From Lachnospiraceae bacterium (GTDB lineage Bacteria > Bacteroidota > Bacteroidia > Bacteroidales > Bacteroidaceae): a stretch of 64,000 nt of DNA. The DNA lies in assembly GCA_963632255.1 (NCBI GenBank), contig CAVGTC010000001.1:3965-67964 (forward strand), in the 5' to 3' direction. The position numbers and the translations under genes are program-made. Shown one piece after another: positions 13,347-48,629 of this stretch. The number at the start of each line of letters is the position of its first letter. Positions within the stretch are counted from its first letter, which is position 1. Under the pieces are notes generated by a model that saw only the letters and a program-made list of their open reading frames with translations, made no database searches and was not told the DNA's origin.

Positions 13347-13392
13347 AGTGTGCAATCCGCAGGGTGCAGTAAACCGGACTCGCGTCCCGTCG

Positions 13393-13466: not shown

Positions 13467-13573
13467 AGTTCCCGTCCGTACGGGGAAAGCCCCCTTGCCG
13501 AATTGCGGTGCAAAGGTAAAGGTTCTTTTTGGATTTAACTATATCTTTGCACGGATTTTTGATATTTTTCGGG

Positions 13574-23845: not shown

Positions 23846-23962
23846 TGTTGCAAATCAGTGGCAAAATGCGTCTGAATTTGTCGTAAATCAGCAGCAAGCG
23901 TTTCCTTCTTTGTCGCAAATCAGTGGCAAAACGCATCAAAACCTGTCGTAAATCAGCGGCAA
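23846..23962. repeat. Four-unit 32-33 bp tandem repeat
   Basis: Core TGTYGYAAATCAGYRGCAA starting at 23846, 23879, 23911 and 23944. Confidence 0.85.
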
Positions 23963-23980
23963 GGCGGCGGGGAAGGCTTG

Positions 23981-30786: not shown

Positions 30787-31235
30787 CGCCCTTCCCGCCG
30801 CCAGGCGCGGAAATCAGTAAGTAAGCAAAACGGCGTTTTTTCTGACACTTTGAATTTCCGCCCGCATTTTAACATATTTGCTTTCGGCGGAAAAATGTAT
30901 TATCTTTGTACTACAAGATAGGGACATGCCGCGAGGCGTGCCCCTATTTTTGACCTATACTAATTATCAGCCACTTACGAGTCAAAATGCCTGCACTTGG
31001 ACCACGGAGTACCGCGGTATCTTGTCACTGGGGTGCGGCTTGGCCTTCAAAGTACCGCGGCATCTTGTCACTGAAGTGCGGCTTGGCGAAAAAAGCCCCG
31101 CGCGAGGCGTCTGAAAGTCCGCACCCTGCATTAAAGAAAGTTAAAGTTCGACTGTTTTCCGCCGCGCCTGTTTTGACACTTTGCCAACTTTTCCGGCGAA
31201 AAACAAGACAAACGAAAAAACCGCGCCTTTTCCGC
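30787..31235 (+). repeat. Dispersed promoter-hairpin element, copy 2 (long form)
   Basis: Reverse complement of 48803-49250 over about 450 bp; TTTG 30877-30880, TATCTTTG 30901-30908. Confidence 0.92.
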
Positions 31236-31381
31236 GCGGCCGCCCCCGCGCCCCGCCGGCGGGCGGACGCGCGGCCGAAAAACACAAAAAGCCGCGCGGC
31301 GGCGGGCGGGGCGCGAAGAAATTGCTAATTTTGCGTGATTTACGCAAGGTAAAAACATATTCATAACATTCAATTCGAGAG

Positions 31382-33598
31382 ATGAACGTGATTACAAAGA
31401 CCGTCGCGCTGCCTGATGGCCGCACCATCAGCATCGAGACGGGCAAGCTGGCCAAGCAGGCCGACGGCGCCGTGATGCTGCGCCTCAACAACACCGTGCT
31501 GCTGGCCACCGTCTGCGCAGCCCGCACCGCACAGCCGGGCACCGACTTCATGCCCCTGCAGTGCGACTACAAAGAGAAATACAGCGCCGCCGGCCGTTTC
31601 CCCGGCGGCTTCACAAAGCGCGAGGGACGCCCCGGCGACTACGAGATACTCACGTCGCGCCTTGTCGACCGCGCCCTGCGCCCCCTCTTCCCCTCCGACT
31701 ACCACTGTGAGGTGTACGTCAACATCACCCTCTTCTCAGCCGACGGCGTGGACTTGCCCGACGCCCTTGCCGGCTTCGCCGCATCGGCCGCCCTCGCCGC
31801 GAGCGACATACCTTTCGAGGGTCCCATCTCCGAGGTGCGCGTGGCACGCGTGGACGGCGAGTACATCGTCGACCCCACCTCCGAGCAGCTGAAAAGCGCC
31901 GACATGGACATCATGGTGGGCGCCACGGAGGAGAACATCATGATGGTGGAGGGCGAAATGGACGAAGTGCCCGAGAGCGCCCTGCTTGAGGCCCTCAAGG
32001 TGGCCCACGAGGCCATCAAGCCCATGTGCCGCCTGCAGAAGGAGCTCTCCAAGGAGCTCGGCACCGACGTGAAGCGCGAGTACGAGGACGAGGTGAACGA
32101 CGAGGAGCTGCGCGCGCAGGTGAAAGACGAGTGCTACGCCCCCGCCTACGCCATCGCGCAGGCCGGCGACCACGACAAGCACCAGCGCGAGGACGCCTTC
32201 ACCAAGATACGCGAGGACTTCAAGGAGAGCTACGCCGCCGCCCACGCCGAAATGGCCGCCGACGAGCTGGAGGAGAAAAACGCCCTCATCGACCGCTACT
32301 ACCACGACGTGGAGCGCGACGCCATGCGCCGCTGCATACTTGACGAGGGCAAGCGCCTCGACGGCCGCCGTACGGACGAGATACGCCCCATATGGTGTGA
32401 GGCGGGTCCCCTGCCCATGCCCCACGGCTCGGCCATCTTCACGCGCGGCGAGACGCAGGCGCTCGCCACCACCACCCTCGGCACGAAAATGGACGAGAAG
32501 ATGGTGGACGACGTGCTTGACAAGAGCTACATGCGCTTCCTCCTGCACTACAACTTCCCCCCGTTCTCCACGGGCGAGGCTAAGGCGCAGCGCGGCGTGG
32601 GACGCCGCGAGATTGGCCACGGGCATCTGGCGTGGCGCGCGCTGAAGGGACAGATTCCCGCCGACTTCCCCTACACGGTGCGCGTGGTGAGCGACATACT
32701 CGAGAGCAACGGCTCGTCGTCAATGGCAACCGTGTGCGCCGGCACACTCTCGCTGATGGACGCCGGCGTGCCCCTCAAGGCACCCGTGAGCGGCATCGCG
32801 ATGGGGCTCATCAAAAACCCCAGCGAGGACAAGTACGCCGTGCTGAGCGACATCCTTGGTGACGAGGACCACCTCGGCGACATGGACTTTAAGACGACGG
32901 GTACGCTCAAGGGACTCACCGCCACGCAGATGGACATCAAGTGCGACGGCCTGTCGTACGAGATACTTGAAAAGGCGCTGGCCCAGGCCAAGGCCGGCCG
33001 CGAGCACATCCTCGGCAAGCTCACCGAGACGCTCGCCGCGCCGCGCGATGACTTCAAGCCGCAGGTGCCCCGCATCGTGGCCTTCGAGATACCCAAGGAG
33101 TTTATCGGAGCCGTGATTGGCCCGGGCGGAAAGATTATCCAGGGCATGCAGGAGGACACCGGCGCCACCATCACCATAGACGAGGAGGACGGCGTAGGCA
33201 AGATACAGGTGAGCGCCCCCAACAAGGAGTCCATCGACGCCGCCGTGGCGAAGATACGCGCCATCGTGGCGATGCCCGAGGTGGGCGAGGTGTACGACGC
33301 CAAGGTGGTGAGCATCATGCCCTACGGCTGCTTCGTCGAGTTCATGCCGGGCAAGGAAGGCCTGCTGCACATCAGCGAAATTGCCTGGAAGCGCCTTGAA
33401 AGCGTGGAGGAGGCCGGCATCAAGGAGGGCGACGCCATCAAGGTGAAGCTGCTTGAGATTGACGAGAAGACCGGCAAGTTCCGCCTCTCCCACCGCGTGC
33501 TGGAAGAGAAGCCCGAGGGCTGGGAGGACCGCCCCGCGCGCCGTCCCCGCCGCGAGGGGGGCGAGGCCCGCAGCCCGCGCCGTCCGCACCGCGACTGA
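31382..33598 (+). CDS. pnp: Polyribonucleotide nucleotidyltransferase
   Basis: [38 protein letters not shown] and S1 domains. Confidence 0.98.
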
Positions 33599-33852
33599 CA
33601 ACGCCGCCGCGCCGCCTCCCGCGCCAAGTGACCGCATGACATGACGCGGCCAAGGCGCGTGCCGCAGCCGGCTAATATGACACGAGCCGCCCGCCCGGAG
33701 CCGCACAGGCCCGGCGGGCGGCTCTCTTTGCGCCCTTTTTCTTAACTTTACCGCAACTTTAAGGTGGGTTCTATTAATTCCCACCGTAAAGAATAACATT
33801 AAACTAACAAAGCAAATTTATAGAACCCACCTTTAATAAGACCCCCTACCAC

Positions 33853-34917
33853 ATGCGCCACCTCCTACCCGCCATACTGCTTGCCGCGCTGCACGCCGCG
33901 TGCCTCAGGGCACAGCCGAAAGTGGAGTTCGACCAGACGATGCGCGACATGGGCACGCTGATTTGGCAGCAGCCCCGCACCGCAGTCTTCAACCTTGTCA
34001 ACAAAAGCACGGAAACGCTTTACATAAAGGACGTGGAGACCGACTGCGGCTGCACCCTGCCGCAGTGGACGGAAACGGCGATAGAGCCGGGCGGAAAGGG
34101 CACCGTGAGCGCCACGTACGACGCCGCGCTGCTGGGGCATTTCTCGAAAAACCTCTTTGTGCACACCAGCCTTTCGGACACGCCCTACCGCCTCCGCCTC
34201 ACCGGCGAGGTGGCGCTGCGCGAAAAGGCGGGCGCGGGCAGCGACTACCCCTACAAGGTGGGCAGCTTCTCGCTGAGCGCGGAGGACGTGGAGTTTGACG
34301 ACGTGCGCAAGGGCGACACCCCCGAGCAGACAATATATATATACAACGGCAGCGGAAAGAGTTACGAGCCCGAGCTGATGCACATGCCGAAATACCTCAC
34401 CGCCGCCATGGAGCCGGCGGTGATACGCCCGGGGGCGACGGGGCGCGTGACGCTGCGCCTCAACAGCCACGAGCTGCGCAACCTCGGTTTGACGCAGACA
34501 AACGTGTACCTAAGCCGCTTCGTGGGCGACCGCGTGAGCCGCGAAAACGAGATAGGCGTGTCGGTGGTGCTTCTGCCCGAAGTGCCTGAAACGCCCGACT
34601 CGGACAGTCCGCAGCTGCTGCTTGACAGCGCCACGGTGACGGTTGCGCCGTCGGGGCGCAAGGGCGCGGCGGGACAGCTGCTGCTTTCAAACGGCGGCAC
34701 GCGCCCGCTCACCGTAAGCATGCTGCAGGTGTACCACCCGGGCATCAGCGTGAGCTTGTCCAAGCGCGAGGTGGCGCGGGGCGAGACGGTGAAGCTGAAA
34801 ATAAAGCTCAACGACGCGGCGGTGCAACAGGGGAAAAACCGCAGGATACTGCTTATCACCAACGACCCGCTGCACCCGAAGACCATCATCAACGTGCACA
34901 TAGCGGAGGCGGAGTGA
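33853..34917 (+). CDS. DUF1573 domain protein (Ig-like repeats)
   Basis: Signal peptide, TDCGCT..W...IEPGGKG motif. Confidence 0.8.
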   Translation: MRHLLPAILLAALHAACLRAQPKVEFDQTMRDMGTLIWQQPRTAVFNLVNKSTETLYIKDVETDCGCTLPQWTETAIEPGGKGTVSATYDAALLGHFSKNLFVHTSLSDTPYRLRLTGEVALREKAGAGSDYPYKVGSFSLSAEDVEFDDVRKGDTPEQTIYIYNGSGKSYEPELMHMPKYLTAAMEPAVIRPGATGRVTLRLNSHELRNLGLTQTNVYLSRFVGDRVSRENEIGVSVVLLPEVPETPDSDSPQLLLDSATVTVAPSGRKGAAGQLLLSNGGTRPLTVSMLQVYHPGISVSLSKREVARGETVKLKIKLNDAAVQQGKNRRILLITNDPLHPKTIINVHIAEAE

Positions 34918-34960
34918 CCACACCCGCGGCACGCACGCCGCCTTGAAAGGAAGAGTGACA

Positions 34961-35008
34961 AGCAAAAGGGCAAAGACGGACTTGCGCCGCCTTTGCCCTT
35001 TTGCTTTT
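34961..35008. terminator. Probable bidirectional intrinsic terminator
   Basis: AGCAAAAGGGCAAAG...CTTTGCCCTTTTGCT between convergent genes. Confidence 0.7.
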
Positions 35009-35084
35009 GTGCTTTGCCGGACAGCCCGGGGTGTCACAGGATATCCCGCGCGGGTTTTGCCGCCCCCGGGGGATGCCGCCGGGG

Positions 35085-35585
35085 TTATCCCTCCTCCGCC
35101 CGCACGTAGTCGGCGAAGGTGAACGGCGCGGCGTTTTTCTCGTCGGCCGTGTGGCTCTCCTCCGCCACCAGCCGCCACTCCGCCGCGTCAAAGGGCGGGA
35201 AAAAGGCGTCGGCGGCGGGCGCCTCGGCGTGCACAAGGGTGAGGTAGAGGCGCGAGGCCCGCGGCAGGGCGGCGGCGTAGACGCTCTCGCCGCCGATGGC
35301 GAAGATCTCCTCGCCGGCTCCGCACGCCGCCAGCGCGTCCCCGAAAGAGCCGAAGACCTCCGCGCCCGGGGCGGCGTACCCCTCCTGCCGGCTTATGACG
35401 ATGTTGCGGCGGTTGGGCAGCGCGCCCTTGGGCAGCGACTCGTACGTCTTGCGCCCCATCAGCACGGTGTGCCCCGTGGTGAGCCGCTTGAAGCGTTTCA
35501 GGTCGGCGGAGAGGCGGAAAAGCAGTCCGCCCTCATACCCTATGGCGCGGCGCTCGTCAAGCGCGCAGATGATGGATAGTGGCAT
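35085..35585 (-). CDS. folA: Dihydrofolate reductase
   Basis: DLKRFK, MGRKTYESLP, LPNRRNIVISR, IGG, ADAFFP. Confidence 0.95.
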   Translation of the reverse strand: MPLSIICALDERRAIGYEGGLLFRLSADLKRFKRLTTGHTVLMGRKTYESLPKGALPNRRNIVISRQEGYAAPGAEVFGSFGDALAACGAGEEIFAIGGESVYAAALPRASRLYLTLVHAEAPAADAFFPPFDAAEWRLVAEESHTADEKNAAPFTFADYVRAEEG

Positions 35586-35627
35586 ATATATGGTGTGTGT
35601 AGGGTTTTCCTGTCCGTGTAGAGGCGT

Positions 35628-36629
35628 TCACTCCCCCTCAAGCTCGCGCAGCTCGTCCCCGGAGAGAGGGGAGCCGGAAATGACGCGCAGGTTGTCGGCA
35701 AGCTGCTCGACGCGGCTTACGCCGACGATGACGCTCGTCACCCCGTGGTGTCCCAGCACCCAGCGCAGCGCCACATCGGCAAGGCTTTCGCCTCGGTGGC
35801 GGGCAAGTGCGTCCCAGCGTCGCAGGCGGGCGAGCAGCTCCGGCGTGAGCGCGCTCTCCTTGAGTGTGACGTCGGTGCGCATCCGCGAGTCCGCCGGCAC
35901 GCCCGAAAGGTAGCGGTCGGTCAGAAGCCCCTGCGCAAGCGGCGAGAAAGCCACAAGTCCCGTGCGCTGCTCCCTCACCGCGTCCAGCACGCCGTCGTGC
36001 TCAATAGTGCGGTCGAGCAGGTTGAGTCTGCCCTGGTAGGCAAGGACGGGCACGTCGCGCTTGCGCAGGTATCCGCAAGCGTAGCGGAAAGCGTCCGCCG
36101 GCCAGCGCGAGATGCCTATGTACAGGGCTTTCCCCTGCCTTACGATGTCGGCAAGCGCCTGCAGGGTTTCGTCAAGCGGCGTGAGCGGGTCGTAGCGGTG
36201 GGAGTAGAAAAGGTCGACATAGTCCAGCCGCATGCGCCTCAGGCTCTGGTCGAGACTCGCCATAAGGTACTTGCGCGAGCCCCAGTTGCCGTAAGGTCCG
36301 GGCCACATGTCGTAACCCGCCTTTGTGGCGACGAAAAGCTCGTCGCGGTAGGGGCGGAAAGAGCCGTCCATCAAGCGCCCGAAAGTCTCCTCCGCCGAGC
36401 CGTACGGCGGCCCGTAGTTGTTGGCGAGGTCGAAGTGCGTCACGCCGTGGTCGAAAGCGTAGTGCAGCATGCGCTCGCTCTCGGAGAAAGGGCGCGCCGC
36501 GCCGAAGCCTTTCCACAGCCCCAGCGACACGCGGGGGAGAAGCACGCCGCTGTCGCCGCAGCGGGCGAAAAGGGCTTCGGCGTCGGCGTAGCGCGTGTCG
36601 GACGCGCGGTAGGGGAGGTGGTCTTGCAT
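35628..36629 (-). CDS. Aldo/keto reductase (YghZ/Gpr-like)
   Basis: HFDLANNYGPPYGSAE, TKAGYDMWPGPYG, FSPLAQGLLT. Confidence 0.92.
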   Translation of the reverse strand: MQDHLPYRASDTRYADAEALFARCGDSGVLLPRVSLGLWKGFGAARPFSESERMLHYAFDHGVTHFDLANNYGPPYGSAEETFGRLMDGSFRPYRDELFVATKAGYDMWPGPYGNWGSRKYLMASLDQSLRRMRLDYVDLFYSHRYDPLTPLDETLQALADIVRQGKALYIGISRWPADAFRYACGYLRKRDVPVLAYQGRLNLLDRTIEHDGVLDAVREQRTGLVAFSPLAQGLLTDRYLSGVPADSRMRTDVTLKESALTPELLARLRRWDALARHRGESLADVALRWVLGHHGVTSVIVGVSRVEQLADNLRVISGSPLSGDELRELEGE

Positions 36630-36741
36630 GGGGAGCTTGTTGTTGTGCTTATATAAAGATGCGTGTCGCGGCGAAGTGTCCGGTGCGGGCACACGGGGGC
36701 GCAGTGGGGCGGGGATGCCGCGCGGCAGTGCGCGTTACGTG

Positions 36742-38202
36742 TCAGTTCTCCCCCGTCCCCTTCCAGTTGACGAGGTAGAGCTTTCCCGTGGTGCGGGTGA
36801 AGGCCGTGTAGAGCCAGCGCAGGTAGGGCAGCCCCATGTCCTCCTCGGGCACGTAGCCCTGGTCGATGTACACGCGCTCCCACTGGCCGCCCTGCGCCTT
36901 GTGGCAAGTGACGGCGTAGGCGTACTTAAGCTGTATGGCGTTGTAGTAGGGGTCCTGCCGCAGGGCACGCATGCGCTCGCGCTTGGAGGGGATGTGCATA
37001 TAGTCTTCCAGCACGCCCTCGTAAAGCCTGTGGCTCTCCTCGCGCGTGAGTGAGGGCGACTCGGAGGTGAGCGTGGAGAGCAGCACGCGGCAGTCCGCCT
37101 CAAAGTCGCCGTAGTCGGGGAAACGCAGCGTGGCGTCGGCGAAGCGGAAGCCGTACTGCTCGTGCTCATTGTGTATGCGCACCACCTCCGCCGTGTCGCC
37201 GTTGGCTATGAAGCTGAGGGGGAGACGCTCGCCGGGGGTGAGCGACTTGGCAATCTGCTCCGTCCAGTAGTAGTTGTTCTTCACCGCCATCACGAGGTCG
37301 CCGCGCGTCAGCTCGTCCTCACGGTCGAAGATGCGGCTGCGTATGCCGTTGTTGTAGATGTTGGCGCGTTTGTTGGAGCGCGTGACCACGATGACCTGGT
37401 CGGTGCCGTAGTTGCGGTAGTCGCCCTCCAAAGCCTCTACAAGTTCGCTGCCGGGCAGTGCCACCACCTCGCCCGCCGCGCTTGTGCGCAGGGGCGGGAT
37501 GCCCGTGAAGCCCTCCGCCTGCAGGCGGCGTATGAGCGTGGCGCCGGAAAGCACGCCGCTGTCGCTGTGCTGGCGCACTACCTCGGTGAGGTCGGCGCTG
37601 CCCACAAGCAGTCCGTAGCGGTGCAGCACTTCCTCGCGCAGGGCGGGACTTTCGTCCTCGCCCACGGGGGGGAGCTGCGCGGTGTCGCCCACGAGGAGCA
37701 GGCGGCAGCCCTGCCCTTGGTAGACAAATGACACGAGGTCGTCCATCAGTTCGCCCGTGCCGAAGAGTGAGTCGCCCATCACGCCCGCCCCGCTGGCTAT
37801 CATCGAGGCCTCGTCGACAATGAAGAGCGCGTCGCGCAGCTTGTTGTAGCCAAGAGAGAAGCGCGTACCCTCGCCGTTGAAGGTTTCCTGGCGGTATATC
37901 ACGCGGTGTATGGTGTACGCCGCCTCGCCGGCGTGGCGGGAGAATACCTTCGCCGCCCGCCCTGTGGGAGCAAGCAACACAGCCTCGCGCCCCAGCTGCC
38001 GCAGCACGCGCACCAACGCGCCGACAAGGGAGGTCTTGCCCGTGCCGGCGTACCCGCGCAGTATGCACGCCGCCATAGGACGCGGCGTGGTGACGAAATG
38101 GGTGAGCAGCAGTGCCGCCTTGCCCTGGGAGGGGGTGAACGGCAGGCCGAACTCCTTTTCAAGGAGTGTGTATACTCTTTCGTTTGTGGTGTCTGTCTGC
38201 AT
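36742..38202 (-). CDS. RecD-like superfamily 1 DNA helicase/ATPase
   Basis: GYAGTGKT, APTGRAA, VDEASM, GDTAQLPPV, YAVTCHKAQG. Confidence 0.9.
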   Translation of the reverse strand: MQTDTTNERVYTLLEKEFGLPFTPSQGKAALLLTHFVTTPRPMAACILRGYAGTGKTSLVGALVRVLRQLGREAVLLAPTGRAAKVFSRHAGEAAYTIHRVIYRQETFNGEGTRFSLGYNKLRDALFIVDEASMIASGAGVMGDSLFGTGELMDDLVSFVYQGQGCRLLLVGDTAQLPPVGEDESPALREEVLHRYGLLVGSADLTEVVRQHSDSGVLSGATLIRRLQAEGFTGIPPLRTSAAGEVVALPGSELVEALEGDYRNYGTDQVIVVTRSNKRANIYNNGIRSRIFDREDELTRGDLVMAVKNNYYWTEQIAKSLTPGERLPLSFIANGDTAEVVRIHNEHEQYGFRFADATLRFPDYGDFEADCRVLLSTLTSESPSLTREESHRLYEGVLEDYMHIPSKRERMRALRQDPYYNAIQLKYAYAVTCHKAQGGQWERVYIDQGYVPEEDMGLPYLRWLYTAFTRTTGKLYLVNWKGTGEN

Positions 38203-38402
38203 GGCTTTACGGGCGGGACAAATTTACGGAAAAACGCACTAACCGCCTTGAAGCCGTCCGCTGTCCGCCGCTTTTGCCATGATCGCTTTACGATTTGCCA
38301 TACAAACGTCCAATCGCGCCCTTTGTTGACAAAATGCGAGATTTAATCTAAATAAGTCAGTCAGGGCTTGGAGTAACGGAAATAGTTACTACTTTTGCAG
38401 TG

Positions 38403-38654
38403 TGTTAAAGCGAACGACGGTTCGCAAGCCCGCGAAAGCGGTCAGACACAAGCCACAAATACGGAATTCTGACGGGACTCGGCAGGGAAGGGTTTTGAAG
38501 CCGAAACAAATCTCCCGGAAGATATAGGAAGGTCTCATCCCCCCCGAAAGAGGGCGGGACACTTCGGACAATAGCTATAAGGTAATAGTGTTTTTTAGGT
38601 AAATGACGAAAGGGGCAGCTCGCGTTGTGAAACGAGGACTGCCCCGCTTTTTTT
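38403..38654 (+). ncRNA. Candidate structured small RNA (about 250 nt)
   Basis: CTTG-N19-TACTTTTG promoter (38367-38397), several hairpins, terminator GGGGCAG...CTGCCCC plus T7; no credible ORF. Confidence 0.6.
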
Positions 38655-39106
38655 ATCCTGTTTTGTCCTGCCGCGCCCCCTTTGTGGCTCTTTACGGGTG
38701 CGAAAGCTCTCTTCGCCCATCGTTTTCCCTGCCGCGCAAGGGATTCGCTGCCGGAATTCCCGCTGTTCCGCCTACGCGTTTCCGCTTTTCCACCTGCTAA
38801 ATTCCGCCTTCTCCTCCCGTTTCTCACGCAACCACGTTTGATTTTGCCCTGCGAAACCACTTGACCGGGCTTCCTTATATCCAGACCGCCCGCGAGACCG
38901 CCTCTTGCGCCATTCACCCGCTGCCGCCGCGCACAAGAAAGCGCACTTGCCGCACAGGATGCGCAGCAAGTCCGCCTTTTAGGTTAATTTCGGTCAAATC
39001 CGTGTCCGCCTTCAAGCCTTTATAGAACCCGCCTATAATGTATGCCAGCCGTAGAGTATGCCCGTGCGGGGCGCAACCTCCGGCAGGGAGGGGCGCATTT
39101 GGCGCG

Positions 39107-40015
39107 TCAGAAGCCCCACTTGGCCTTGACGCACTGGTCCTCCACGCTCTCCTCATCCGCCACTTTGGAAAGGTTGGGGAAGAAGTTGATGCCCGTGAGC
39201 TGCTCCAGCCGGTTGACACTGACGGCGTGCGTGCCAATCACCGAAAGCGGTGCTTTGTTTTCGTACGTGTAACCGTACTCTTTGTGCTCCATCCAGAAAG
39301 CGATGGAGCTGTATCCGCCGTTCTTGATGGCAAGCAAAGCCATGAAGTAGTACTTCGGCACAGCCACCCGCGCCCCGTTGCTGCGCGTCTGGTAGCCCAG
39401 CGTCTGGTCGAGCGTCCCGCCTTTCACCACATAAAGTGTGTCGGCAAAGCTGGAGCTGCGTCCGAGCGTCTGCACACGGGCTTCAAGCGTAGTCCAGTAG
39501 CCCTGGTTGAAAGAGGAGAGCATCGGTGACATATTGGACATGTAAAAGGTAAGGTAGTTGGCGCTGACGGAGTAGAGGCGGTCGGCCGAGGCGCAGAGGT
39601 GGCCGCGGTTGTAGCCCCAGTCAAACGTCTGCGTGCCGATGCGCAGCGAGGCGGGGAGGTCGGGGTCGTCGGCCCAGGGGTTGTCGCTGCGTCCCGTGCC
39701 TTTCGCACGCGTGACACCGTCGAAGCGGAAAGCCACCCAGCGCGAGTGGTACTTCGCCTTGTTGTACTCAAGGCAGTAGGCCATCACGTTCTTTCCGTTT
39801 TCGGTGGTGGTGTGAATCAGCGTCACCGTCGAGCCGTCGGTGCATGTCGCGGGGCACTCCATGCGTGTGGTGACATCGGCGGAGGCCTCCGGCGTGCTGG
39901 TGTCGCTGCCGCCCTCCTTGCCGTAGCTTACGCGCCCGGAGCTGTCGTCGTCACCGCACGAAAGGAGGAGGACGGCGGAAAAGGAAAGGAGAATATATAT
40001 TGCGTATTTCTTCAT
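39107..40015 (-). CDS. DNA/RNA non-specific endonuclease lipoprotein (His-Me finger, NucA/EndA-like)
   Basis: Lipobox LLLSC, YNRGHLCAS, TFYMSNMSP..FNQGYW..LE, VPKYYF. Confidence 0.9.
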   Translation of the reverse strand: MKKYAIYILLSFSAVLLLSCGDDDSSGRVSYGKEGGSDTSTPEASADVTTRMECPATCTDGSTVTLIHTTTENGKNVMAYCLEYNKAKYHSRWVAFRFDGVTRAKGTGRSDNPWADDPDLPASLRIGTQTFDWGYNRGHLCASADRLYSVSANYLTFYMSNMSPMLSSFNQGYWTTLEARVQTLGRSSSFADTLYVVKGGTLDQTLGYQTRSNGARVAVPKYYFMALLAIKNGGYSSIAFWMEHKEYGYTYENKAPLSVIGTHAVSVNRLEQLTGINFFPNLSKVADEESVEDQCVKAKWGF

Positions 40016-40102
40016 TGTCGTCTGTCTGCGTAAACAATAGGAAAGCCGCTGCCGCAAAAGGACTTGCGGCGGCGGCTTTCCCCTGTTTCAGGAAGCCGGG
40101 GG

Positions 40103-41713
40103 TTACTCGGCGTAGTAGATGGTGAACGAAACGATGCGCAGCTGCGTCGGACTGCCCGTCGTGGTGTTGGCGTTGGTGAGCAGCGTGGAGGTTGCGCCAA
40201 TGCTGCTTACCCACAGTTTCTGCCCGTTGACTGTCACCGTGCCCGGCTCGGCGTTGATAAGTCCGTTAGCCGTGTATACCGTGCCCTGGTAGCTGTCGCA
40301 GTTGAACAGGATGGAGGCAATCTTTTTGGAAGAGGCCACCGTGATGGTGTTCTTGGGATACACGCGGATGTTTTTGCCCGAGGTGTAGTATTTCGGGGTG
40401 TTGGTTGCGCCGCCGCCCGCAAAGGTCAGCGTCGTGCCGTCCGAAAGGGTGAGCGTCTCCATGGCGGTGCCGTTCTCATAACCGAAGGACTCTGCCGTAG
40501 CCGTAATGAAGTTGCTTGTCACCGCGCCCTCGGGGTCGCTTCCTGTGTCACCGCCTGTGTCACCGCCGGTGTCGCCTCCGCCCGTGCTCTCGCCCGGTTT
40601 GCCTGCCGCGATGCTGAAATTCTTCACCTCCCAAGTGGAGCCGCTCGTGGCGTTGGTGTTGTAGCGGAAGGCTATGCGCACCGTCTTGCCCATGTACTCG
40701 GAGGGTATGGCGATGTCAGACGAGGAGAAAGTCGACCAGTCCGAGCCCTCGGTGTGCGTCTGGTTGAGCACCGTCCAGCCCTCTGCGGCGTTGGCCTCGT
40801 TGAAGGCGGTGGAGATGAGCAGCTGCTGGTTTTCGTCTCCCTTGTTGTAGCGCAGGATATAGTCGTAGCTTACGTGCGCCTCGGTCTGTCCCTGCAGCGA
40901 TATCTCAGGGCTCACGAGGTAGTAAGTGCCAGCCGTCGTGGTCTTGGACGTGTTGTCGTAACCCGTGGCCTTTGCCGTGCTGTAGTCAATGGTCCACGCG
41001 CCGGAACCGCTTGTGAGGTAGCTGGTGAAGCTGCCGAGTGTCGTGGAGAATGCCTCCGTGTAAGGCAGGGTCTTCGTGCCGCCGGTGTCGGTGCCGCCGC
41101 CCGATGCGCCGCCCTCGTTCACCGCGAAGTTTTTCACCTCCCAGGTGGAGCCGCTCGTGGCGTTGGTGTAGTAGCGGAAGGCTATGCGCACCGTGTCGCC
41201 CATATACTCGGCGGGGATGCTCACGTCAGCCGAGGAGAAAGTCGACCAGTCCGCGCCCTCGGTGTGTGTCTGGTTGAGCACCACCCAACCCTGCGCGGGG
41301 TTGGAGGCGTCAAAGGAGGGGTTGATGAGTACCTGCTGGTTTTCGTCTCCCTTGTTGTAGCGCAGGATGTAGTCGTAGGTGACGTGTGCCGCGCTCTTTC
41401 CCACAAGCGATATCTCGGGACTTATGAGGTAGTACGTGCCTGCCGTCGTGGTCTTGGTTGTGTTATCGTAACCCGTGGCCTTGGCCGTGCTGTAGTCAAT
41501 CTCCCACTTGCCCGAGCCGTCGGTGGTGTAGTTGGTGAAACTTCCGAGTGAGGAGGCGAACGACTCCTCGTAGGGCAGCGTCTTCACGTTGCTTTCGCTT
41601 TCGCCGCTTCCGCTCGTTCCGGCGTTGACCCCGTAAGGTGCCGGCACATCCTCGCAGGCTGTGAAACCGAGCGCCATTACGGCGGCAGCGAGGCTAAGAA
41701 TGTATTTCTTCAT
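40103..41713 (-). CDS. Surface lipoprotein with two tandem near-identical ~160-aa beta-rich domains
   Basis: Lipobox FTAC-EDVP; internal duplication with about 510-nt period; Gly/Thr linkers (GGDT x3). Confidence 0.75.
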   Translation of the reverse strand: MKKYILSLAAAVMALGFTACEDVPAPYGVNAGTSGSGESESNVKTLPYEESFASSLGSFTNYTTDGSGKWEIDYSTAKATGYDNTTKTTTAGTYYLISPEISLVGKSAAHVTYDYILRYNKGDENQQVLINPSFDASNPAQGWVVLNQTHTEGADWSTFSSADVSIPAEYMGDTVRIAFRYYTNATSGSTWEVKNFAVNEGGASGGGTDTGGTKTLPYTEAFSTTLGSFTSYLTSGSGAWTIDYSTAKATGYDNTSKTTTAGTYYLVSPEISLQGQTEAHVSYDYILRYNKGDENQQLLISTAFNEANAAEGWTVLNQTHTEGSDWSTFSSSDIAIPSEYMGKTVRIAFRYNTNATSGSTWEVKNFSIAAGKPGESTGGGDTGGDTGGDTGSDPEGAVTSNFITATAESFGYENGTAMETLTLSDGTTLTFAGGGATNTPKYYTSGKNIRVYPKNTITVASSKKIASILFNCDSYQGTVYTANGLINAEPGTVTVNGQKLWVSSIGATSTLLTNANTTTGSPTQLRIVSFTIYYAE

Positions 41714-41805
41714 TTTGTCGCGTGTTTGTTATGTGGTTATTTGTCGGTGTGTCATAGCGTTCGTGCCGCGCGGTCTTCCGCGCCGCCGCCCGCCGTGGCG
41801 TAGTG

Positions 41806-42819
41806 TCAGTTTGCGGAGATGTCCGTTGTGTCGCGCAGCTGCACCTGCCAGTTGTCATAGTAGGAAAGCACGCCCGTGTAGGTGCGGCTGTCCTCGGGCA
41901 GCTCGAGGTAGGATATTACGTTCTTGGTGGAGGTGCGCAGCGTCACCTTGCTGTTGTTGCTTTCCAGGAGGATGGTGCGGTCCACGCCGTAGCCCTGGTC
42001 GTGCAGTTCGTAGGGGGCGAAAATCTTCTTCCCGTTGGCGGAGAGCGTTTCCACCTTGTCAAGCACGTCGTCCTCGCTTCCCTTGTCAAGGGAGGTCTTC
42101 TTTGCGCCCTGCACCTCGTCTATCGTGCCGCGCACCTTGGCAAGCAGCGGGGTGTACTGGTAGGTCTTGTTGGCGGAGGCGCGCAGCCACGCGTCACCCG
42201 TCGTGCCGGTGAGGTCGAGCGGTGTGAGCTCGGGAGCCGACATGTCAGGCGCACCCACCAGCTGCACGTTGGTGGCGAGCAGCTGGAAGAGGATGGGGCC
42301 GAGGTTGATGTTCCCGTACGACGACTTCAGCGGCTGCCCGATGCGGGGCACTTTGCTGTACACGCCGCAGTAAAGCCCTTTGAGGTTCACCTTGACGCGC
42401 TGACCCAGCTTGATGTAGGGGTAGATTGCCGTGGTCTTCACGCCGAGTATGATGCACTGGTCGTGTGCCGGGTCGGACGCGTCCTTTGTGCTGTCAATGT
42501 TGCGCAGCAGCAGCGTCTGGTAGAGGTTGCCGCTGACGTCGTTGGCCACCACCACGCCGGTGATGATGACATCCTCGTTCACTTTGGTGAAGAAGTTGCT
42601 TGAGTTGCGCTTGTAGTCGCATCCCTCGCTGCTGGCGCAGTACTTCGTCTTCACGTCGAGTATCGTGGAGTTGACCTCACCTATGTCCGTGGGGCTTGTC
42701 ACGCTGTACGAGGCGGTCGCAGGCTCGTCGTGGTCGTCCATGCACGAGGTGGCGAGCGTGCCCGTCAGCCCCAACGCCGCAACAGCCAGAGCGGAAAATA
42801 ACTTGTATCTCGTAAACAT
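41806..42819 (-). CDS. DUF5689-like lipoprotein (putative OB-fold)
   Basis: Lipobox LATSC-MDD, ITGVVVAND.SGNLY, GQRVKVNLKGL, WQVQLR..DI. Confidence 0.65.
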   Translation of the reverse strand: MFTRYKLFSALAVAALGLTGTLATSCMDDHDEPATASYSVTSPTDIGEVNSTILDVKTKYCASSEGCDYKRNSSNFFTKVNEDVIITGVVVANDVSGNLYQTLLLRNIDSTKDASDPAHDQCIILGVKTTAIYPYIKLGQRVKVNLKGLYCGVYSKVPRIGQPLKSSYGNINLGPILFQLLATNVQLVGAPDMSAPELTPLDLTGTTGDAWLRASANKTYQYTPLLAKVRGTIDEVQGAKKTSLDKGSEDDVLDKVETLSANGKKIFAPYELHDQGYGVDRTILLESNNSKVTLRTSTKNVISYLELPEDSRTYTGVLSYYDNWQVQLRDTTDISAN

Positions 42820-42869
42820 AATTGCCTTAGTGTGTGTTGTTGGATTGTTATACTCCCGGAGCCGCCTCC

Positions 42870-45614
42870 TTAGAACTTGAAGCCGATGTTGAGGAAACCG
42901 TTGATGGAGTTGGCGTAATAGTACTTGGAGTTCTTTGAGAAGCTGTAAGCCTTTTTCTCGCCCGAGGAGTAGTTGTCGTCACGGTTCTGCTCGTAGCCTC
43001 CGGTTTTGAGGTTGCGGTTGTTTGTGATGTTCTGCACCGAGAGGTTGATGCTGAGGCTCTTTCCCTTTTTAAGGCGGATGTACTTTCCGATGCTTGCGTC
43101 AAGCATGAAGCCGCCCTTTGCCTTTTCCTGCTTGGGTGAGTGCGTCTCCACGATGTTGAGGTCGCGGTCAAGCAGGATGGCACCGTTCTCCTTTATCTCC
43201 GAGGGGGTCATATTGAACTTCACCACGGCGTCCTTTATGCTGTTGTCGGATATTTCCCACGTCTTGCCGAGGTTGTTCTTGTTGGTCATCACGCTCGTCA
43301 GGCGGCGGTACTCGGAGAAGTCGATGTACACGCGGTCGTAGTAGTTGAGGTTCGCGCTGAAAAACCACCCCTTTATGTTGTAGTCGAAGCCGAGGCTCAC
43401 TGCCGTGAGCGGCGTGCCGCTTTCGCGCATCCCCTTTGCCAGCACGCGCAGCGGCAATACCTTTTGGTTGGCTGTGTTGGTGGTGATGTTGCCGTCGGTG
43501 TCCTTGGTGGTCTGTGTGATGGTCCACTTGTTGAGGTCGGCCAGCGTGCTGGCGTCCATGCCCTCGTAAGCCACCTGCGCCAGCGGGTTGTTGACATACT
43601 TCGCCTCGCTGTACGTGCCGATGAGGTGTACGGAGAAGTTGGAGGTTATCTGGTAGTTGAAGGCTGCCTCCACGCCGTAGTGCTCACGCTCCACGCCGCT
43701 CATGGTGAGGTAGGTGAAACGCGACTCCTGGTCGTTGTAGAAAGCCGTCTGCTCCACGCCGCCGCTGAAGCGTGAGTAGTATCCGCCCACCTTGCCCGAG
43801 AAGTTGCCGAAGCGGAAGGTGTAGGAAAGGTCGGCGTGGAAGATGTTCTCGTTGGAGAGGTTGTCCACGAAGTTGTTCTGCATGCGCGGGGCAACAAACG
43901 AGTTGCGTGCCAGCGGGGCGTTGCTCTCCGCGCCGAAGTTGAGCGCGATGACATGCGAGCCGCTGGGGCGCATCGTCAGGCCGAAGCGTCCGCCGCCGCC
44001 GAGGAACTTCGCCTTGCCGCTTCGCCCGAGCGAGTTTTGCGGGGCGCGGCCGTTGCGCATCAGGCCCTCGCGCTCAATGGTAGTGCCCTCGCCGAAGGCG
44101 GTGAGGTTGTACTGCCACATGCCCTTGTTGTACTGGTAGAGGCCGTAGGCGCGTGCCTTGTTGACGAAGATGTTATAGTTGTACCCGAACTTGTCGTCCA
44201 CGCCAATCTGGCGGTTGGGGTTGTCGAGGTCGTTCTGCGCCTGCGTGCTGCCCTCGCCGTAGTCGTTGGCGGCAAACTTGTCGATGTCCGTGTAGCGCGT
44301 GGCGCCGAGGAGGTCGGCCATCGTCTTGTAGTGCATGCCCTTCGTCGTGTTGAGCTGCACGCCCACTGTGTACTTGTGGTTGGGGTTTACGCTGTGGTTG
44401 AAAGCCGTGTTGAAGACAAACGCCATCTGGTCGTTGTGGCGGCGCTCCTGGTAGTAGAGAGCCTCGCCGCCCTGCGCCTCGTTCTGGCGGTTGACGTAGT
44501 ACATGCGGTCCCAGTCAATCTGCCGGTTGGCCTTGCTGCTCTTCCAGTAGTCGTAGAGGCTGTTGTACTGGTCGAGGTACCACGGCGTGGAGGCCAGGCT
44601 CTCCGGGGTGTTGGCTCCGCCTTTTTCCGTGTCGTACACGTCGAAGATGGAGCTGGGCATGTTTTTGTAGTAGTCGGGGCGCGGGTCGTAAGCGTCGCCG
44701 TTCCACCCCAGCGCGGTGCTGCTGTACATGGCGTACTTGAAGCCCGCCGAGGTGGTGAGCTTCATGTTGTCGCGCATCTTCCAGTCCCAGGTGAGAATGG
44801 CGGTAGGCTCAAAGTCGTTCACCACGCGGGCGTTGCGGCGTTCGCCGTTTTGGTAGCCCCAGTTGGGGTTGTAGTAGTGCGAGTTTGCCAGCCAGTAGGC
44901 CTCCTCGGTCGAGGCGCCCTGCTGTCCGCGCTCGGTGGGTGAGCCGAAGGTCACCAGTGAGAGGGCGTGCTTGTCGCCGAAACGCTTCTCGACGGAGAGC
45001 AGGTAGGAGAGCGAGTTGTAGAAAGTGCCCTCGATGTAGCCCTTGTTGGCCCAGCGGTAGCCCACCAGCCCGGCGAAAGCCCAGCCCGAGGGCAGCAGTC
45101 CCGTGGCGTAGCTGTACATGCCGCGTGCCACATAGTTGCGGTTGCAGCCGGAGAGGGTCAGTTTGTTGCCGTGGGCAAACTGGCTCGCCCTCGTGTTGAC
45201 GCTCGTCGCGCCGCCTATGCCGCCCACGCCGATGTGGTTGAACTCGTAGGCGTTGAGACCCTCCTGGTTGCGCGTGGCGTCGTTCATGCCGCCCACCATG
45301 CTGTAGCTGAAACGCCCCATCTCCAGGTCGTTGAGCTGCAGCCCGTTCATATAGTAGCTGTTGTACTGGTTGTCAAGCCCGCGCACGCGGAAGCGCATAG
45401 GGCTGAAGAGGTAGCCCACTTCGGAGAGGTAGGGGTCGCTCTTTGTGCCCGTGATGGTCGAAACGGTCTGGGACGCGTCGTTGTCCTCGTCAAGCTGCGA
45501 CTCCGTGAAGGTAAAGTCGGAGTTGTCAACCTGCAGGGTGTCAACTGGCTGCTGCGCGTACGCCCCTGTGGCGAACAGCAGCGCGGCGGCCGTGATTTTT
45601 ACACCTTTGCTCAT
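42870..45614 (-). CDS. TonB-dependent receptor-like outer-membrane beta-barrel (non-SusC)
   Basis: Signal peptide, RFRVRG plug-like motif, aromatic-rich beta strands, C-terminal GFKF. Confidence 0.8.
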   Translation of the reverse strand: MSKGVKITAAALLFATGAYAQQPVDTLQVDNSDFTFTESQLDEDNDASQTVSTITGTKSDPYLSEVGYLFSPMRFRVRGLDNQYNSYYMNGLQLNDLEMGRFSYSMVGGMNDATRNQEGLNAYEFNHIGVGGIGGATSVNTRASQFAHGNKLTLSGCNRNYVARGMYSYATGLLPSGWAFAGLVGYRWANKGYIEGTFYNSLSYLLSVEKRFGDKHALSLVTFGSPTERGQQGASTEEAYWLANSHYYNPNWGYQNGERRNARVVNDFEPTAILTWDWKMRDNMKLTTSAGFKYAMYSSTALGWNGDAYDPRPDYYKNMPSSIFDVYDTEKGGANTPESLASTPWYLDQYNSLYDYWKSSKANRQIDWDRMYYVNRQNEAQGGEALYYQERRHNDQMAFVFNTAFNHSVNPNHKYTVGVQLNTTKGMHYKTMADLLGATRYTDIDKFAANDYGEGSTQAQNDLDNPNRQIGVDDKFGYNYNIFVNKARAYGLYQYNKGMWQYNLTAFGEGTTIEREGLMRNGRAPQNSLGRSGKAKFLGGGGRFGLTMRPSGSHVIALNFGAESNAPLARNSFVAPRMQNNFVDNLSNENIFHADLSYTFRFGNFSGKVGGYYSRFSGGVEQTAFYNDQESRFTYLTMSGVEREHYGVEAAFNYQITSNFSVHLIGTYSEAKYVNNPLAQVAYEGMDASTLADLNKWTITQTTKDTDGNITTNTANQKVLPLRVLAKGMRESGTPLTAVSLGFDYNIKGWFFSANLNYYDRVYIDFSEYRRLTSVMTNKNNLGKTWEISDNSIKDAVVKFNMTPSEIKENGAILLDRDLNIVETHSPKQEKAKGGFMLDASIGKYIRLKKGKSLSINLSVQNITNNRNLKTGGYEQNRDDNYSSGEKKAYSFSKNSKYYYANSINGFLNIGFKF

Positions 45615-45941
45615 AAATAGATAAGAAATTGGGGCGCAGTGTCCCCGTTTGCCAATTACATGTGCAAATGTAGGGCAAAAGGCGGAAAGGAATTTTACAT
45701 TTATGTGAAAAAATGCCGTGCCTCCCGCCGCGCCCGCCCCACTTTCGGAAAATAATTAGGAAATTTGCAACCGTCCGCGCCCTCTTGCGGCTTGCCCCCG
45801 CACCCCCGCACACGGGGGGTGGCGGCCGCGCGAAGCCTTTGTCTGCGGGGCGCGCCTCGCCATGCGGGAAGGCTTTCCCGGGGCACACCTTATATATATA
45901 GACGAAACCATATCACACGACACACTTACATAACTCTTATT

Positions 45942-47081
45942 ATGAAGCGTCTCCCCCTCACCCTCGCAGCCGTGCTGCTTGCGCTCGCGGCTCTCTGCTC
46001 GTTCACCACGGCGCCCGGCACGCGCCCCGCGCCGCAGCAGAAGCGGTACGCGCTCTACGGCGTGGCTTTCTACAACCTTGAAAACCTCTTCGACACGCTG
46101 CACGACGCGGGGAAAAACGATTACGAGTACCTGCCCGGCGGCACGATGAAGTGGGGGCGCATGAAGTACGAGGCCAAGCTGCACAACATGGCGCGCGTGC
46201 TGTCGGAGCTGTGTACGGACAAGCTGCCCCTCGGCCCGGCGGTGATAGGCCTGTCGGAGGTGGAGAACAGCCGCGCCCTTGAGGATCTGCTCGCCCAGCC
46301 CGCCCTCGCCGGACGCGGGTACAAATACATCGACTACCCCGGCGTCGACCGCCGCGGCGTGGAGTGCGCCCTGCTGTACAACCCGCGTTTCTTCAAGTGC
46401 GAGGGTTCGATGATTGTGCCCTACTTCTACAAGGACGCGTCGCAGCCCGACGTCGACCTCGGCTTCCGCATGGAGGGCGGCGAGGTGGTGCCCTACGACA
46501 CCCTGCGCGGCGACACCACTTACATCACGCGCGGCTTCCTCGTGGCGCACGGCCGCCTGGCCGGTGAGGAGATGTACTTCATCGTCAACCACTGGCCCTC
46601 GCGCGGTGCGGCAAGTCCCGCCCGCGAGCGTGCCGGCTACCAGGTGCGCTGCCTCAAGGACAGCATCATGAAATACCACACCGCCGCCAAGGTCATCATC
46701 ATGGGTGACATGAACGACGACCCCGGCGACAAGAGCATCACCTCCGCCCTGGGTTGCGTCAGCCGCCAGAAGGACGCCAAGAAGTCCGCCGACCTTTTCA
46801 ACCCGTGGGGCGAGACGCTCTACAAGGTGGGGCAGGGCACGCTGCTGTACAACGGCAAGTGGAACCTCTTCGACCAGATTATCCTCTCGGCCAACCTGCT
46901 CGGCACGGACCGCAGCACGCTGAAGTATTACAGGCATGAGATATTCATGCGCGACTACCTCTTCCAGCAGGAGGGCAAGTACAAGGGCTCGCCCCTCCGC
47001 ACCCACGCCGGCGGCGTGTGGCTCAACGGATACTCTGACCACCTGCCCACGTATGTCTACCTTGTGAAGGAGGCCAACTGA
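45942..47081 (+). CDS. Secreted endonuclease/exonuclease/phosphatase (EEP) family nuclease
   Basis: FYNLENLFD, GLSEVEN, VNHWPSR, MGDMND, FDQI, GYSDHLP. Confidence 0.9.
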   Translation: MKRLPLTLAAVLLALAALCSFTTAPGTRPAPQQKRYALYGVAFYNLENLFDTLHDAGKNDYEYLPGGTMKWGRMKYEAKLHNMARVLSELCTDKLPLGPAVIGLSEVENSRALEDLLAQPALAGRGYKYIDYPGVDRRGVECALLYNPRFFKCEGSMIVPYFYKDASQPDVDLGFRMEGGEVVPYDTLRGDTTYITRGFLVAHGRLAGEEMYFIVNHWPSRGAASPARERAGYQVRCLKDSIMKYHTAAKVIIMGDMNDDPGDKSITSALGCVSRQKDAKKSADLFNPWGETLYKVGQGTLLYNGKWNLFDQIILSANLLGTDRSTLKYYRHEIFMRDYLFQQEGKYKGSPLRTHAGGVWLNGYSDHLPTYVYLVKEAN

Positions 47082-47267
47082 GCGCGCCCCTGCGGCGGCC
47101 CCCGCGAATAAGGCGACAGGCAAGTCCCGCCCGCGAGCGCGGACGGACAATTGACACACAACGGCGCGGAGACGGCGGCGCGGGGACGGAAAGCCCCGCC
47201 GCGCCGCCCCCGCGCCGCACGGCGAAACACACACAAGCACACCAAACCAAGACACACATCAAATACT

Positions 47268-48629
47268 ATGGCACAAAAACCCGGCATACCCAAAGGCACG
47301 CGCGACTTCGGTCCCGTCGAGACGGCGCGCCGCAACTACATCTTCGGCACGATACGCTCGGTGTACGCCCTTCACGGCTACCGCCAGATAGAGACGCCCG
47401 CCATGGAGAACCTCTCCACCCTTATGGGAAAGTATGGCGAGGAGGGCGACAAGCTGCTCTTCAAGATTCTCAACTCGGGTGAGTTCAAGGGCGCGGTCAC
47501 CACGGACGACTACAACGCCAAGACCTCCCTGCAGCTTGCCCCGCGCTTCTGCGAGAAAGGCCTGCGCTACGACCTTACCGTGCCTTTCGCACGCTATGTG
47601 GTGCAGCACCGTGACGAGCTGCAGATGCCCTTCAAGCGCTACCAGATACAGCCCGTGTGGCGCGCCGACCGCCCGCAGAAGGGACGCTACCGCGAGTTCT
47701 ACCAGTGCGACGCCGACGTGGTGGGTTCCGACTCGCTGCTCAACGAGGTGGAACTTATGGAGATTGTCGACGAGGTGTTCTCCCGCTTCGGCATACGCGT
47801 GGCGATAAAGATAAACAACCGCAAGATTCTCTCCGGCATTGCCGAGGTCATCGGCGCGGCGGACAAGATTGTCGACATCACCGTGGCCATTGACAAGCTC
47901 GACAAGATAGGGCTTGACAACGTCAACGCCGAGCTGCTGGCCGCCGGCCTCACCCCTGAGGCCGTGGAGCGGCTGCAGCCGGTCATCTCGCTCACGGGCA
48001 CCAACGCCGGGAAGCTCGCCACAATGCGCGGCGTGCTGGCGGACAGCGAGACGGGACTGAAAGGCCTTGACGAGGTGGCTTTCGTGCTTGACACGCTGGA
48101 GGGCAGCGGACTGCGCAACGCGCTGGAGCTTGACCTCACGCTCGCCCGCGGCCTCAACTACTACACGGGCTGCATCTTCGAGGTGAAGGCGCTTGACGTG
48201 CAGATAGGCTCCATCACGGGCGGCGGACGCTACGACAACCTCACGGGCATCTTCGGCATGCCGGGGCTGAGCGGCGTGGGCATCTCCTTCGGAGCCGACC
48301 GCATTTACGACGTGCTGGCGCAGCTCGACCTCTACCCCACGGACACGGCCTCGGGCGTGGAGGTGCTTTTCTGCAACTTCGGCGAAAAGGAGGCGGCGTG
48401 CTGCCTGCGCCTTGCCGCCGCGCTGCGCAAGGCGGGGCACGCTGCCGAGGTGTACCCCGACAGCGTGAAGATGAAGAAACAGATGGCTTACGCCAACGCG
48501 CACAACGTGCCTTTCGTCGCCCTCGTGGGGGAGACGGAGATGGAGCAGGGCACCGTTTCGCTGAAGAATATGGCGACGGGCGAGCAGCGCACCGTCAAGG
48601 CGGACCAACTGCCCGCCGCGCTGGGCTGA
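47268..48629 (+). CDS. hisS: Histidine--tRNA ligase
   Basis: [49 protein letters not shown]. Confidence 0.97.

Follow-up and report, generated by a model that had tools for sequence, protein, structure and literature searches.

A dispersed non-coding repeat headed by a predicted promoter and terminator, with an IHF-like site and palindromic array like those of the PINSR elements of Prevotella intermedia

The window, the whole stretch of 64,000 nucleotides analyzed here, comes from a genome (G000) that is represented by an assembly of 2.33 Mb in 142 contigs and is 94.6% complete. Four copies of a non-coding repeat lie in it. Copy 1 (approximately 10060-10520, minus strand) lies between a NUDIX gene and a GH95 gene, copy 2 (30790-31219, plus strand) between ychF and pnp, copy 3 (48818-49248, minus strand) between hisS and a sodium symporter gene, where it is directed into the 3' end of hisS, and copy 4 (approximately 60050-60370, minus strand) between yidD and a gene for a SusC-like receptor. 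The extent given for copy 2 is the one it has in common with copy 3, to which it is 94% identical in inverted orientation. A 76-nt motif that had been singled out from the sequence alone is only the conserved head of this larger dispersed repeat, which is 250 to 430 bases long and is present in more than 100 copies in G000.

A full copy consists, in order, of a left arm, a predicted promoter, a hairpin with a U-run, an IHF-like site, four to five palindromes, TTAA boxes, and a right arm. In the case of copy 2, all of whose features are given on the plus strand, the left arm (30790-30876) is degenerate, is approximately the inverse of the right arm, and ends in a TTTTAACA box just 5' of the promoter. 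The predicted sigma-ABfr promoter (30877-30908) has a -33 TTTG at 30877-30880, a 20-nt spacer, and the -7 box TATCTTTG at 30901-30908, and the sigma-ABfr consensus, in the available text of its description, is TAnnTTTG at -7 with TTTG near -33 (PMC7366714). A start at about 30912-30915, placed from the position of the -7 box, would give a predicted RNA of about 35 to 40 nt (30913-30951) that ends in the U-run; the intrinsic-terminator-like element (30918-30951) comprises a hairpin at 30918-30947 and a U-rich run at 30945-30951, and is called from folding and from covariation in sister species. The IHF-like site (30965-30977) was recognized by the IHF consensus WATCAAnnnnTTR, and beyond it lie an array (30988-31090) of four to five imperfect palindromes at 21/22-nt spacing, a 43-nt period, with units at 31010, 31031, 31053, and 31074, and the right arm (31130-31230) with tandem TTAA boxes (31130-31145). 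The -7 promoter box of pnp itself (31326-31333, plus strand) is outside the repeat, and the pnp-to-hisS gene block (31382-48629), which is flanked by copies 2 and 3, is inverted relative to the genomes of two sister species, G154 and G014.

The sequence-only reading had described each copy as a promoter firing straight into a hairpin, and its description of the four copies was accurate. TTTG, exactly 20 nt, and TATCTTTG are present in all four (30877-30908 on the plus strand; 49161-49130, 10444-10413, and 60299-60268 on the minus strand), including copy 4, in which the spacer has diverged and its length has been kept, and the hairpin begins 9 nt 3' of the -7 box in the window copies and is followed by the U-rich run. 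The stem of copy 2 has the changes C-A to G-C, U-A to U-G, and A-U to A-C around a retained GCGA loop, and read-through from the copies would run in the sense direction into pnp and antisense to the NUDIX, hisS, and yidD genes. The window-copy hairpins fold with z = -4.4 to -5.6, with 0/200 shuffles equally stable. Rfam has nothing at gathering score in the repeat, the matches below that score having E values of 0.43 and 3.2.

Both promoter boxes are intact at exactly 20 nt in 109 of the 111 scorable G000 copies (88 with TTTG, 21 with CTTG), and when copies were anchored on the IHF-like module instead of on the promoter, a count that left out one match inside coding sequence and 19 truncated matches, the promoter was intact in 71/73. 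Spacer positions outside the boxes are likewise 91 to 99% conserved in G000, and the uniformity of the heads could thus be due in part to gene conversion. The spacer (window 30881-30900, and in other copies) is also an imperfect palindrome whose center occurs in either orientation among copies, a micro-inversion, and it is a possible operator. A degenerate form of the promoter pattern also matches IMG/VR contigs, and since these matches precede an AT-rich leader, often with an ATG, and no hairpin, the pattern looks like a strong near-consensus promoter. The viral matches were rejected as copies of the element and regarded as ordinary promoters, the terminator test being passed by 3/89.

A G-C-based stem with a U-run stands 3' of the promoter in 83/85 scorable G000 copies; a terminator-like hairpin was found at 5 of 159 other promoter-like sites, and two of those five are variants of the element. 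Other species have retained the promoter, the placement of stem and U-run, and the distance of the stem to the -7 box, with stem sequences that are unrelated. Within G014 and G154, two-sided changes occur in 10/16 pairs and 86% of cells are paired across 39 copies (39 of the 40 found, one identical copy having been omitted), figures that are inflated by relatedness; none of 500 shuffles reached 86%, and slid controls gave 39 to 74%. The four window copies, when aligned, have two-sided changes in 0/12 pairs, so the evidence for covariation comes from other species, and among the distinct G000 variants 15 stem changes keep a pair and 13 break one, and the core GGG/CCC pairs are constant among the G000 rows compared. 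Covariation is thus seen in the two sister species, and the stem changes in the genome of the window are mixed. G-T oppositions outnumber A-C oppositions by 69 to 18 in 93 stems from outside G000, and the corresponding numbers in G000 are 6 and 9, in a count biased by a classifier that folds the transcribed strand.

By sequence, the head has what an intrinsic terminator should have, namely a G-C-based stem, a U-run, and pairing on the transcribed strand. The GNRA loop is another matter: 96/109 G000 copies have it, versus none of the 104 distinct hairpins collected elsewhere, in other genomes or in metagenome contigs. The unpaired 5' stretch of about 5 to 10 nt differs among species and contains no conserved seed. 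The idea of a conserved GNRA hairpin RNA is not supported, as the loop is confined to G000 and the stems are unrelated between species. Since the stem changes completely across species and yet remains paired, the promoter and terminator look selected, and because stems and loops turn over while pairing, position, and U-run persist, the constraint would be on having a terminator and not on having this RNA. What survives of the proposal that both promoter and RNA structure are under selection is the promoter and terminator-like hairpin as a unit, which selection appears to keep, and not the GNRA loop or the RNA sequence. The head likely yields an RNA of about 40 bases whose sequence drifts freely.

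The element lies 3' of a co-oriented gene more often than expected by chance (74/107, P = 3e-5; neighbor genes called with a simple custom model), and the genes downstream are read in sense in 33 cases and in antisense in 41 (41/74, P = 0.30). The -7 box of pnp, at 31326 in G000, occupies the same place in all 29 pnp loci shown from relatives. A leader role for pnp is not needed because pnp has its own -7 box, and an attenuated leader for the neighboring genes is not supported, given this conserved box and the mixed orientation of downstream genes. Among 179 neighbors there was no recurring mobility gene.

An IHF-like site with at most two mismatches is found in 60/78 G000 copies versus 346/2000 shuffles, and with at most one mismatch in 38/40 G014/G154 copies. 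The array has an autocorrelation peak at 43 in G000, and peaks at 21 and 43 in copies of the type found in genomes G125 and G024. The latter have a fixed length of 247-250, 260-262, or 269-270 nt in 54 of 56 loci scanned, and their ends are sharp, information falling to background no more than about 4 nt from inverted TTAAC boxes of about 10 bp. The G000 copies have long, degenerate arms, and those of G014/G154 have arms with direct-repeat motifs. Homology between a copy and its best partner usually stops about 60 to 90 nt 5' of the -33 box (median 70), and two G000 pairs have 194 and 289 nt of left-side sequence in common. Filled-minus-empty lengths in G014 are 553, 552, and 509 nt, larger than the 250- to 290-nt core; the junctions at the empty sites of the sister species could not be placed, as the sequences are too diverged. 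A target duplication was not found at 56 loci, where the direct match was 4.62 versus 4.41 in shuffled sequence (38/500). A subfamily of the G125 type (L040, L333, L358, L360, L413, L500) has about 40 extra nucleotides on the left that include a REP-like palindrome, and tandem pairs of elements also occur.

This layout resembles iteron origins as well as the ends of recombinase substrates and transposons, for which an IHF site beside repeated sites of about 22 bp is typical; the parts that look iteron-like by their layout are the two-helical-turn repeats, IHF-like site, AT-rich element, and upstream promoter. The TTAA boxes were considered as a dif/Xer site, and no dif site was recognized in them. 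A CRISPR- or TIGR-type guide array was rejected on the likeness of the units from copy to copy and on the absence of a recurring neighbor gene, and type I and type III toxin-antitoxin systems because no ORF is conserved and the parts come in the wrong order. A separate intergenic array with units of about 21/22 nt (a 53-nt repeat at 65-nt spacing) is located at window 23846-23963.

The 25-nt head anchor has 113 matches in G000, of which five begin close to a contig start and were possibly counted twice, and 90 are located no farther than 220 nt from the end of a contig. There are also 52 right halves that lack a head, almost all of them truncated where a contig ends, and at least 146 of the 284 contig ends bear a piece of the repeat. 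Across 148 genomes of the genus, counts of the promoter pattern are bimodal, with 50 to 162 in nine genomes, 8 to 18 in four, 1 to 6 in 15, and none in 120; a zero count is not absence, because the single pattern used misses diverged forms such as those carried by G143, G137, and G080. There were no high-copy genomes among 400 family and 400 order genomes outside the genus, and one element-like locus (L081) was found in another genus among those of the family. The exact G000 head matched 0 metagenome stretches, and blastn gave no match of the repeat to plasmids or phages.

A stretch of about 180 kb is colinear between the genomes G014 and G154, and within it some element sites are filled in both. 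Three G014 copies correspond to empty sites in G154, one more to a remnant, and another to a copy without its -7 box; decayed copies of the element exist. Neither G154 nor G014 has an element at the site of copy 4 (yidD/SusC-like) or at the symporter/pnp site, whereas G154, G014, and also the more distant G143 have one at the 3' end of hisS. One likely within-species pair was found (L360/L040), with both sites filled. A fifth copy on contig C1, near 75141-75865 (L074) and thus past the right end of the window, has an IS fragment (a DDE_Tnp_1 match) within its -7 box, and its hairpin side is gone.

Copies 2 and 3, 94% alike, stand at the two ends of an inversion of 18 kb, the pnp-to-hisS block having in G000 the orientation opposite to that in both sister species. 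A second block, 54810-71001 of C1 in window numbering, is also inverted relative to G154 and G014, and elements are at both of its ends in those genomes. Elements occur at 29/79 gene-order breaks versus 9/334 conserved adjacencies, and with all 21 contig-end cases scored as conserved the comparison is 29/79 versus 24/355 (P = 8e-11); 50 of the 79 G000 breakpoints are without an element. Left arms are more than 0.8 alike in 4/31 same-contig pairs versus 0.4% of 5747 others (P = 1e-5), right ends are at least 0.7 alike in 8/15 inverted pairs and 0/6 direct pairs, and left arms by orientation give 9/23 inverted versus 0/8 direct (P = 0.07). The close same-contig pairs are all inverted and 10 to 21 kb apart, although direct-orientation neighbors are undersampled because contigs break at copies, and deletion would also be expected to purge similar direct pairs. 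The right end of copy 1 is 0.85 alike to an inverted copy 14 kb off, at the start of contig C1, and an inverted pair 22 kb apart in G154 is identical across the 87-nt head. Recurrence of the element accounts for part of the scrambled gene order of the lineage and for many of the assembly breaks. Replication-strand bias is weak and inconsistent, with 62 C-rich, 36 G-rich, and 15 flat cases in G000 and 23 versus 17 in relatives. Two head-to-head fusions joined through the stem/loop were found, and no tail-to-tail fusions; the former (G000:C96 near 11680-11740, and C15 near 12042) have two promoters converging on one hairpin and no arrays.

The repeat behaves as a dispersed repeat of the PINSR or MITE type, and it has the general features of a MITE in being short, non-coding, intergenic, and of high copy number; the target duplication that a DDE-type MITE should leave was not found. 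G000 gave no match to Y1, PDDEXK_2, DUF4372, or reverse transcriptase, and none of these families, nor HU-HIG or the tyrosine recombinases, could be linked to the repeat as a helper, in a search of few families in incomplete assemblies. Only two tyrosine recombinases were found in each of G014 and G154. No autonomous IS with matching ends was found in G000 among the few families searched, in an assembly broken at repeats, and an IS fragment is present at the end of contig C1. Assignment to the RAYT-associated REP/REPIN class was rejected, as the stem is unrelated between species and Y1 is present in 2/9 high-copy genomes, against 78/148 overall, and in none of the G000 contigs.

Among known elements, PINSR of Prevotella intermedia comes closest. 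The available part of its report describes it as a non-coding, intergenic, lineage-restricted sequence of 188 bp in about 180 copies with some inversions between copies (PMC4755523), and the present repeat is like it in all of these qualitative respects. The PINSR-F primer was searched in 285 Prevotella-type genomes, a set with G000 and its genus outside it. Loci with the primer have an IHF-like site and then a palindromic array with a 22/44-nt period, in the same order as the present repeat, but the array sequence, compared by eye, differs, and the promoter-terminator head is present in 0/12 (one being a short fragment). Three PINSR genomes have 0 to 1 exact matches to the present promoter pattern, and a promoter is nowhere mentioned in the part of the PINSR text available (PMC4755523). 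The primer loci (L469-L480) start with TGTAAA and end with TTTACA, a short inverted end, and PINSR is stated, in that same part, to be without terminal inverted repeats (PMC4755523). The promoter-terminator-headed layout had no description in a full-text literature search, with subscription journals largely outside it, and the repeat is apparently an undescribed, promoter-terminator-headed variant of PINSR-like repeats.

Other described elements have one or another of its parts. The BrickBuilt MITE of Porphyromonas gingivalis, likewise an intergenic Bacteroidales element with repeats and a promoter, has in the portion of its report available a leader, 23-nt repeats, a tail, and promoter activity (PMC4596501). 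It differs in that its 12-bp terminal repeats are of the IS5 type and match resident IS elements, it is present in 19 copies, its tandem repeats are non-palindromic and vary in number, and its promoters are bidirectional; that portion describes no terminator directly 3' of a promoter (PMC4596501). The FopS small RNAs of Bacteroides thetaiotaomicron, as far as the available text goes, have a sigma-ABfr promoter, a short single-stranded 5' end, and a terminator, are present in 12 to 15 copies across the Bacteroidaceae, and have a conserved seed and mRNA targets (PMC11697453). The present repeat has, by sequence, the same outline of a multicopy unit, but it is seedless and its copies range from 0 to more than 160, in contrast to the seed and the stable copy number of FopS in that text. 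Putative mobile promoters are repeated promoter-bearing sequences beside unrelated genes whose mechanism of movement is unknown (PMC3575422); they are not self-terminated, whereas the present promoter is followed by its own predicted terminator and its orientation to downstream genes is random.

Genes of the HU-HIG family, described in PMC5499826 in the part available, provide a further comparison. Cassettes of HU-HIG and small-protein genes in the Prevotella-type genomes G434 and G292 have a promoter 1 to 2 bases from a common G000 variant and an IHF-like site upstream, and the G292 HU-HIG-type cassette also has a visible 21-nt array, as in the present repeat. The promoter of these cassettes drives a protein gene and has no terminator behind it, in contrast to the repeat, and an element promoter was found near HU-HIG genes in none of five carrier genomes; G014 has no HU-HIG gene. 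The HU-HIG cassettes, whose promoter is nearly identical, may be the source. Long, mirror-symmetric palindromes of heptamer repeats that look like origins were also seen 5' of HU-HIG genes (L085, L089, and L093 in G434, and C10, 9600-9900, in G000), the one in G000 lying among phage-like genes.

Our preferred interpretation, to which we give a probability of about one half, is that transcription of the head likely serves the copying of the repeat itself and not the genes of the cell, and that the repeat is most likely selfish. The strong promoter would make an RNA of about 40 nt that ends at the hairpin right behind it, and RNA polymerase would open the DNA at the head and stop before the array, so that neighboring genes would be largely spared. 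The short terminated transcript would act in cis. A host bending protein on the IHF-like site and a lineage-specific dimeric protein on the 21/22-bp array would form a copying complex, and the copying would be coupled to replication or recombination, carrying along flanks of variable length and often placing the new copy near by and inverted, rather than by precise cut-and-paste. Later recombination between copies would homogenize them and invert the intervening DNA. Selfish dynamics are suggested by the bimodal counts, the filled and empty orthologous sites, the decayed copies, and the high copy number restricted to the genus, and clean cut-and-paste is argued against by the absence of a target duplication, by the filled-minus-empty lengths of 509 to 553 nt that exceed the core, and by the 194 and 289 nt of shared left sequence. 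The preserved head with its freely changing RNA sequence, the similar inverted neighbors, and the excess of elements at gene-order breaks also speak for this interpretation. There are considerations on the other side. Host selection could also explain the old hisS 3' site that is filled in G154, G014, and G143; the many copies in G014 and G154 have left about 180 kb of the two genomes colinear, and 50/79 breakpoints are element-free; the uniform heads could reflect gene conversion, and the G000 stems are without a G-U excess (6 versus 9); no helper protein was found in the few families searched in incomplete assemblies; and the sharp ends and fixed length of the G125/G024-type copies fit an ordinary MITE better.

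Such a MITE, moved in trans by a transposase or tyrosine recombinase that would bind the array and the ends, with the promoter-terminator as a passenger or as an insulator with no role in copying, is in our estimate unlikely. It would account for the fixed lengths and sharp, inverted end boxes of about 10 bp in the 54 G125/G024-type loci and for an IHF site beside repeated sites of about 22 bp. Intramolecular replicative transposition yields an inverted copy together with an inversion, as observed for copies 2 and 3. Metagenome assemblies often lose IS elements, and a fragment of one lies at the end of C1. It is harder to reconcile such a MITE with the lack of a target duplication and with ends that vary from lineage to lineage and in G000 are degenerate, and no shared transposase was found, Y1 being present in 2/9 high-copy genomes versus 78/148 and no mobility gene recurring among the 179 neighbors; nor should a mere passenger promoter have survived intact in all lineages when the remainder turns over. 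We consider it somewhat less plausible that the copies are host-selected genes for tiny RNAs, similar to FopS, or jointly form a sink that titrates RNA polymerase or an RNA-binding protein. The FopS-like outline, in the part of that report available (PMC11697453), the nearly always intact heads, and the loci kept across three species agree with this, but the unpaired 5' part of about 5 to 10 nt differs among species with no conserved seed, nothing in Rfam matches at gathering score, and an RNA gene would not need to be tied to an array and end boxes. Moreover, the 12 to 15 copies of FopS across the Bacteroidaceae in that text contrast with a pattern that is missing from 120/148 congeners.

The G000 stem resembles GTAG-type REPs, a likeness that, together with the two head-to-head fusions joined at the loop, would suit the idea that nothing is transcribed, that the hairpin acts as DNA, a REP-like palindrome recognized by an HUH nuclease, and that the promoter is a frozen ancestral sequence. 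This is improbable, as the stems of other lineages are not REP-like and yet keep the U-run and the distance to the -7 box, the G-U excess outside G000 is on the transcribed strand, and there is no association with a Y1 transposase. We give marginally less credence to the hairpin as a leaky attenuator by which the element, as a mobile promoter, regulates read-through into the array and adjacent genes. A strong predicted promoter does face pnp in copy 2, some read-through is plausible because the U-run in G000 is interrupted, and in G434 an HU-HIG gene is driven, with no terminator, by a promoter that is a close variant; against this, pnp has its own conserved promoter, downstream orientation is as expected by chance (41/74 antisense, P = 0.30), no leader sequence on which an antiterminator might act is conserved, and the neighbors are unrelated.

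An extension of the selfish reading, speculative and in our estimate doubtful, is that the repeat is a mini-origin whose own terminated transcript of about 40 nt would serve as a primer or license for DNA synthesis nearby, at an IHF site and iteron-like array. Resolution of the over-replicated stretch would leave an inverted sister 10 to 20 kb away, at times with inversion of the genes between. If the mini-origin existed, it would be a gene-free replicator run by a promoter-terminator and host proteins alone, and PINSR would be its headless relative. The design is odd in any case, since a near-consensus promoter that would be silenced by its own terminator is maintained in 50 to 160 copies in several species while the transcribed sequence changes. 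The unexplained PINSR class gains an anatomy, consisting of an IHF-like site and a 21/22-bp array, and if the repeat is copied without a transposase of its own, this would be a new route by which non-coding DNA spreads in bacteria.

The window contains some further features of its own. A SAM-II long-loop riboswitch is predicted at 9166-9225 on the minus strand, with 57.8 bits against a gathering score of 44, and three tRNA genes stand in tandem at 13152-13511 with a 120-nt period, two of the units being identical. A 28-nt palindromic motif at 33758-33785, 33820-33835, and 55468-55495 lies 5' of two unrelated genes and is a possible operator.
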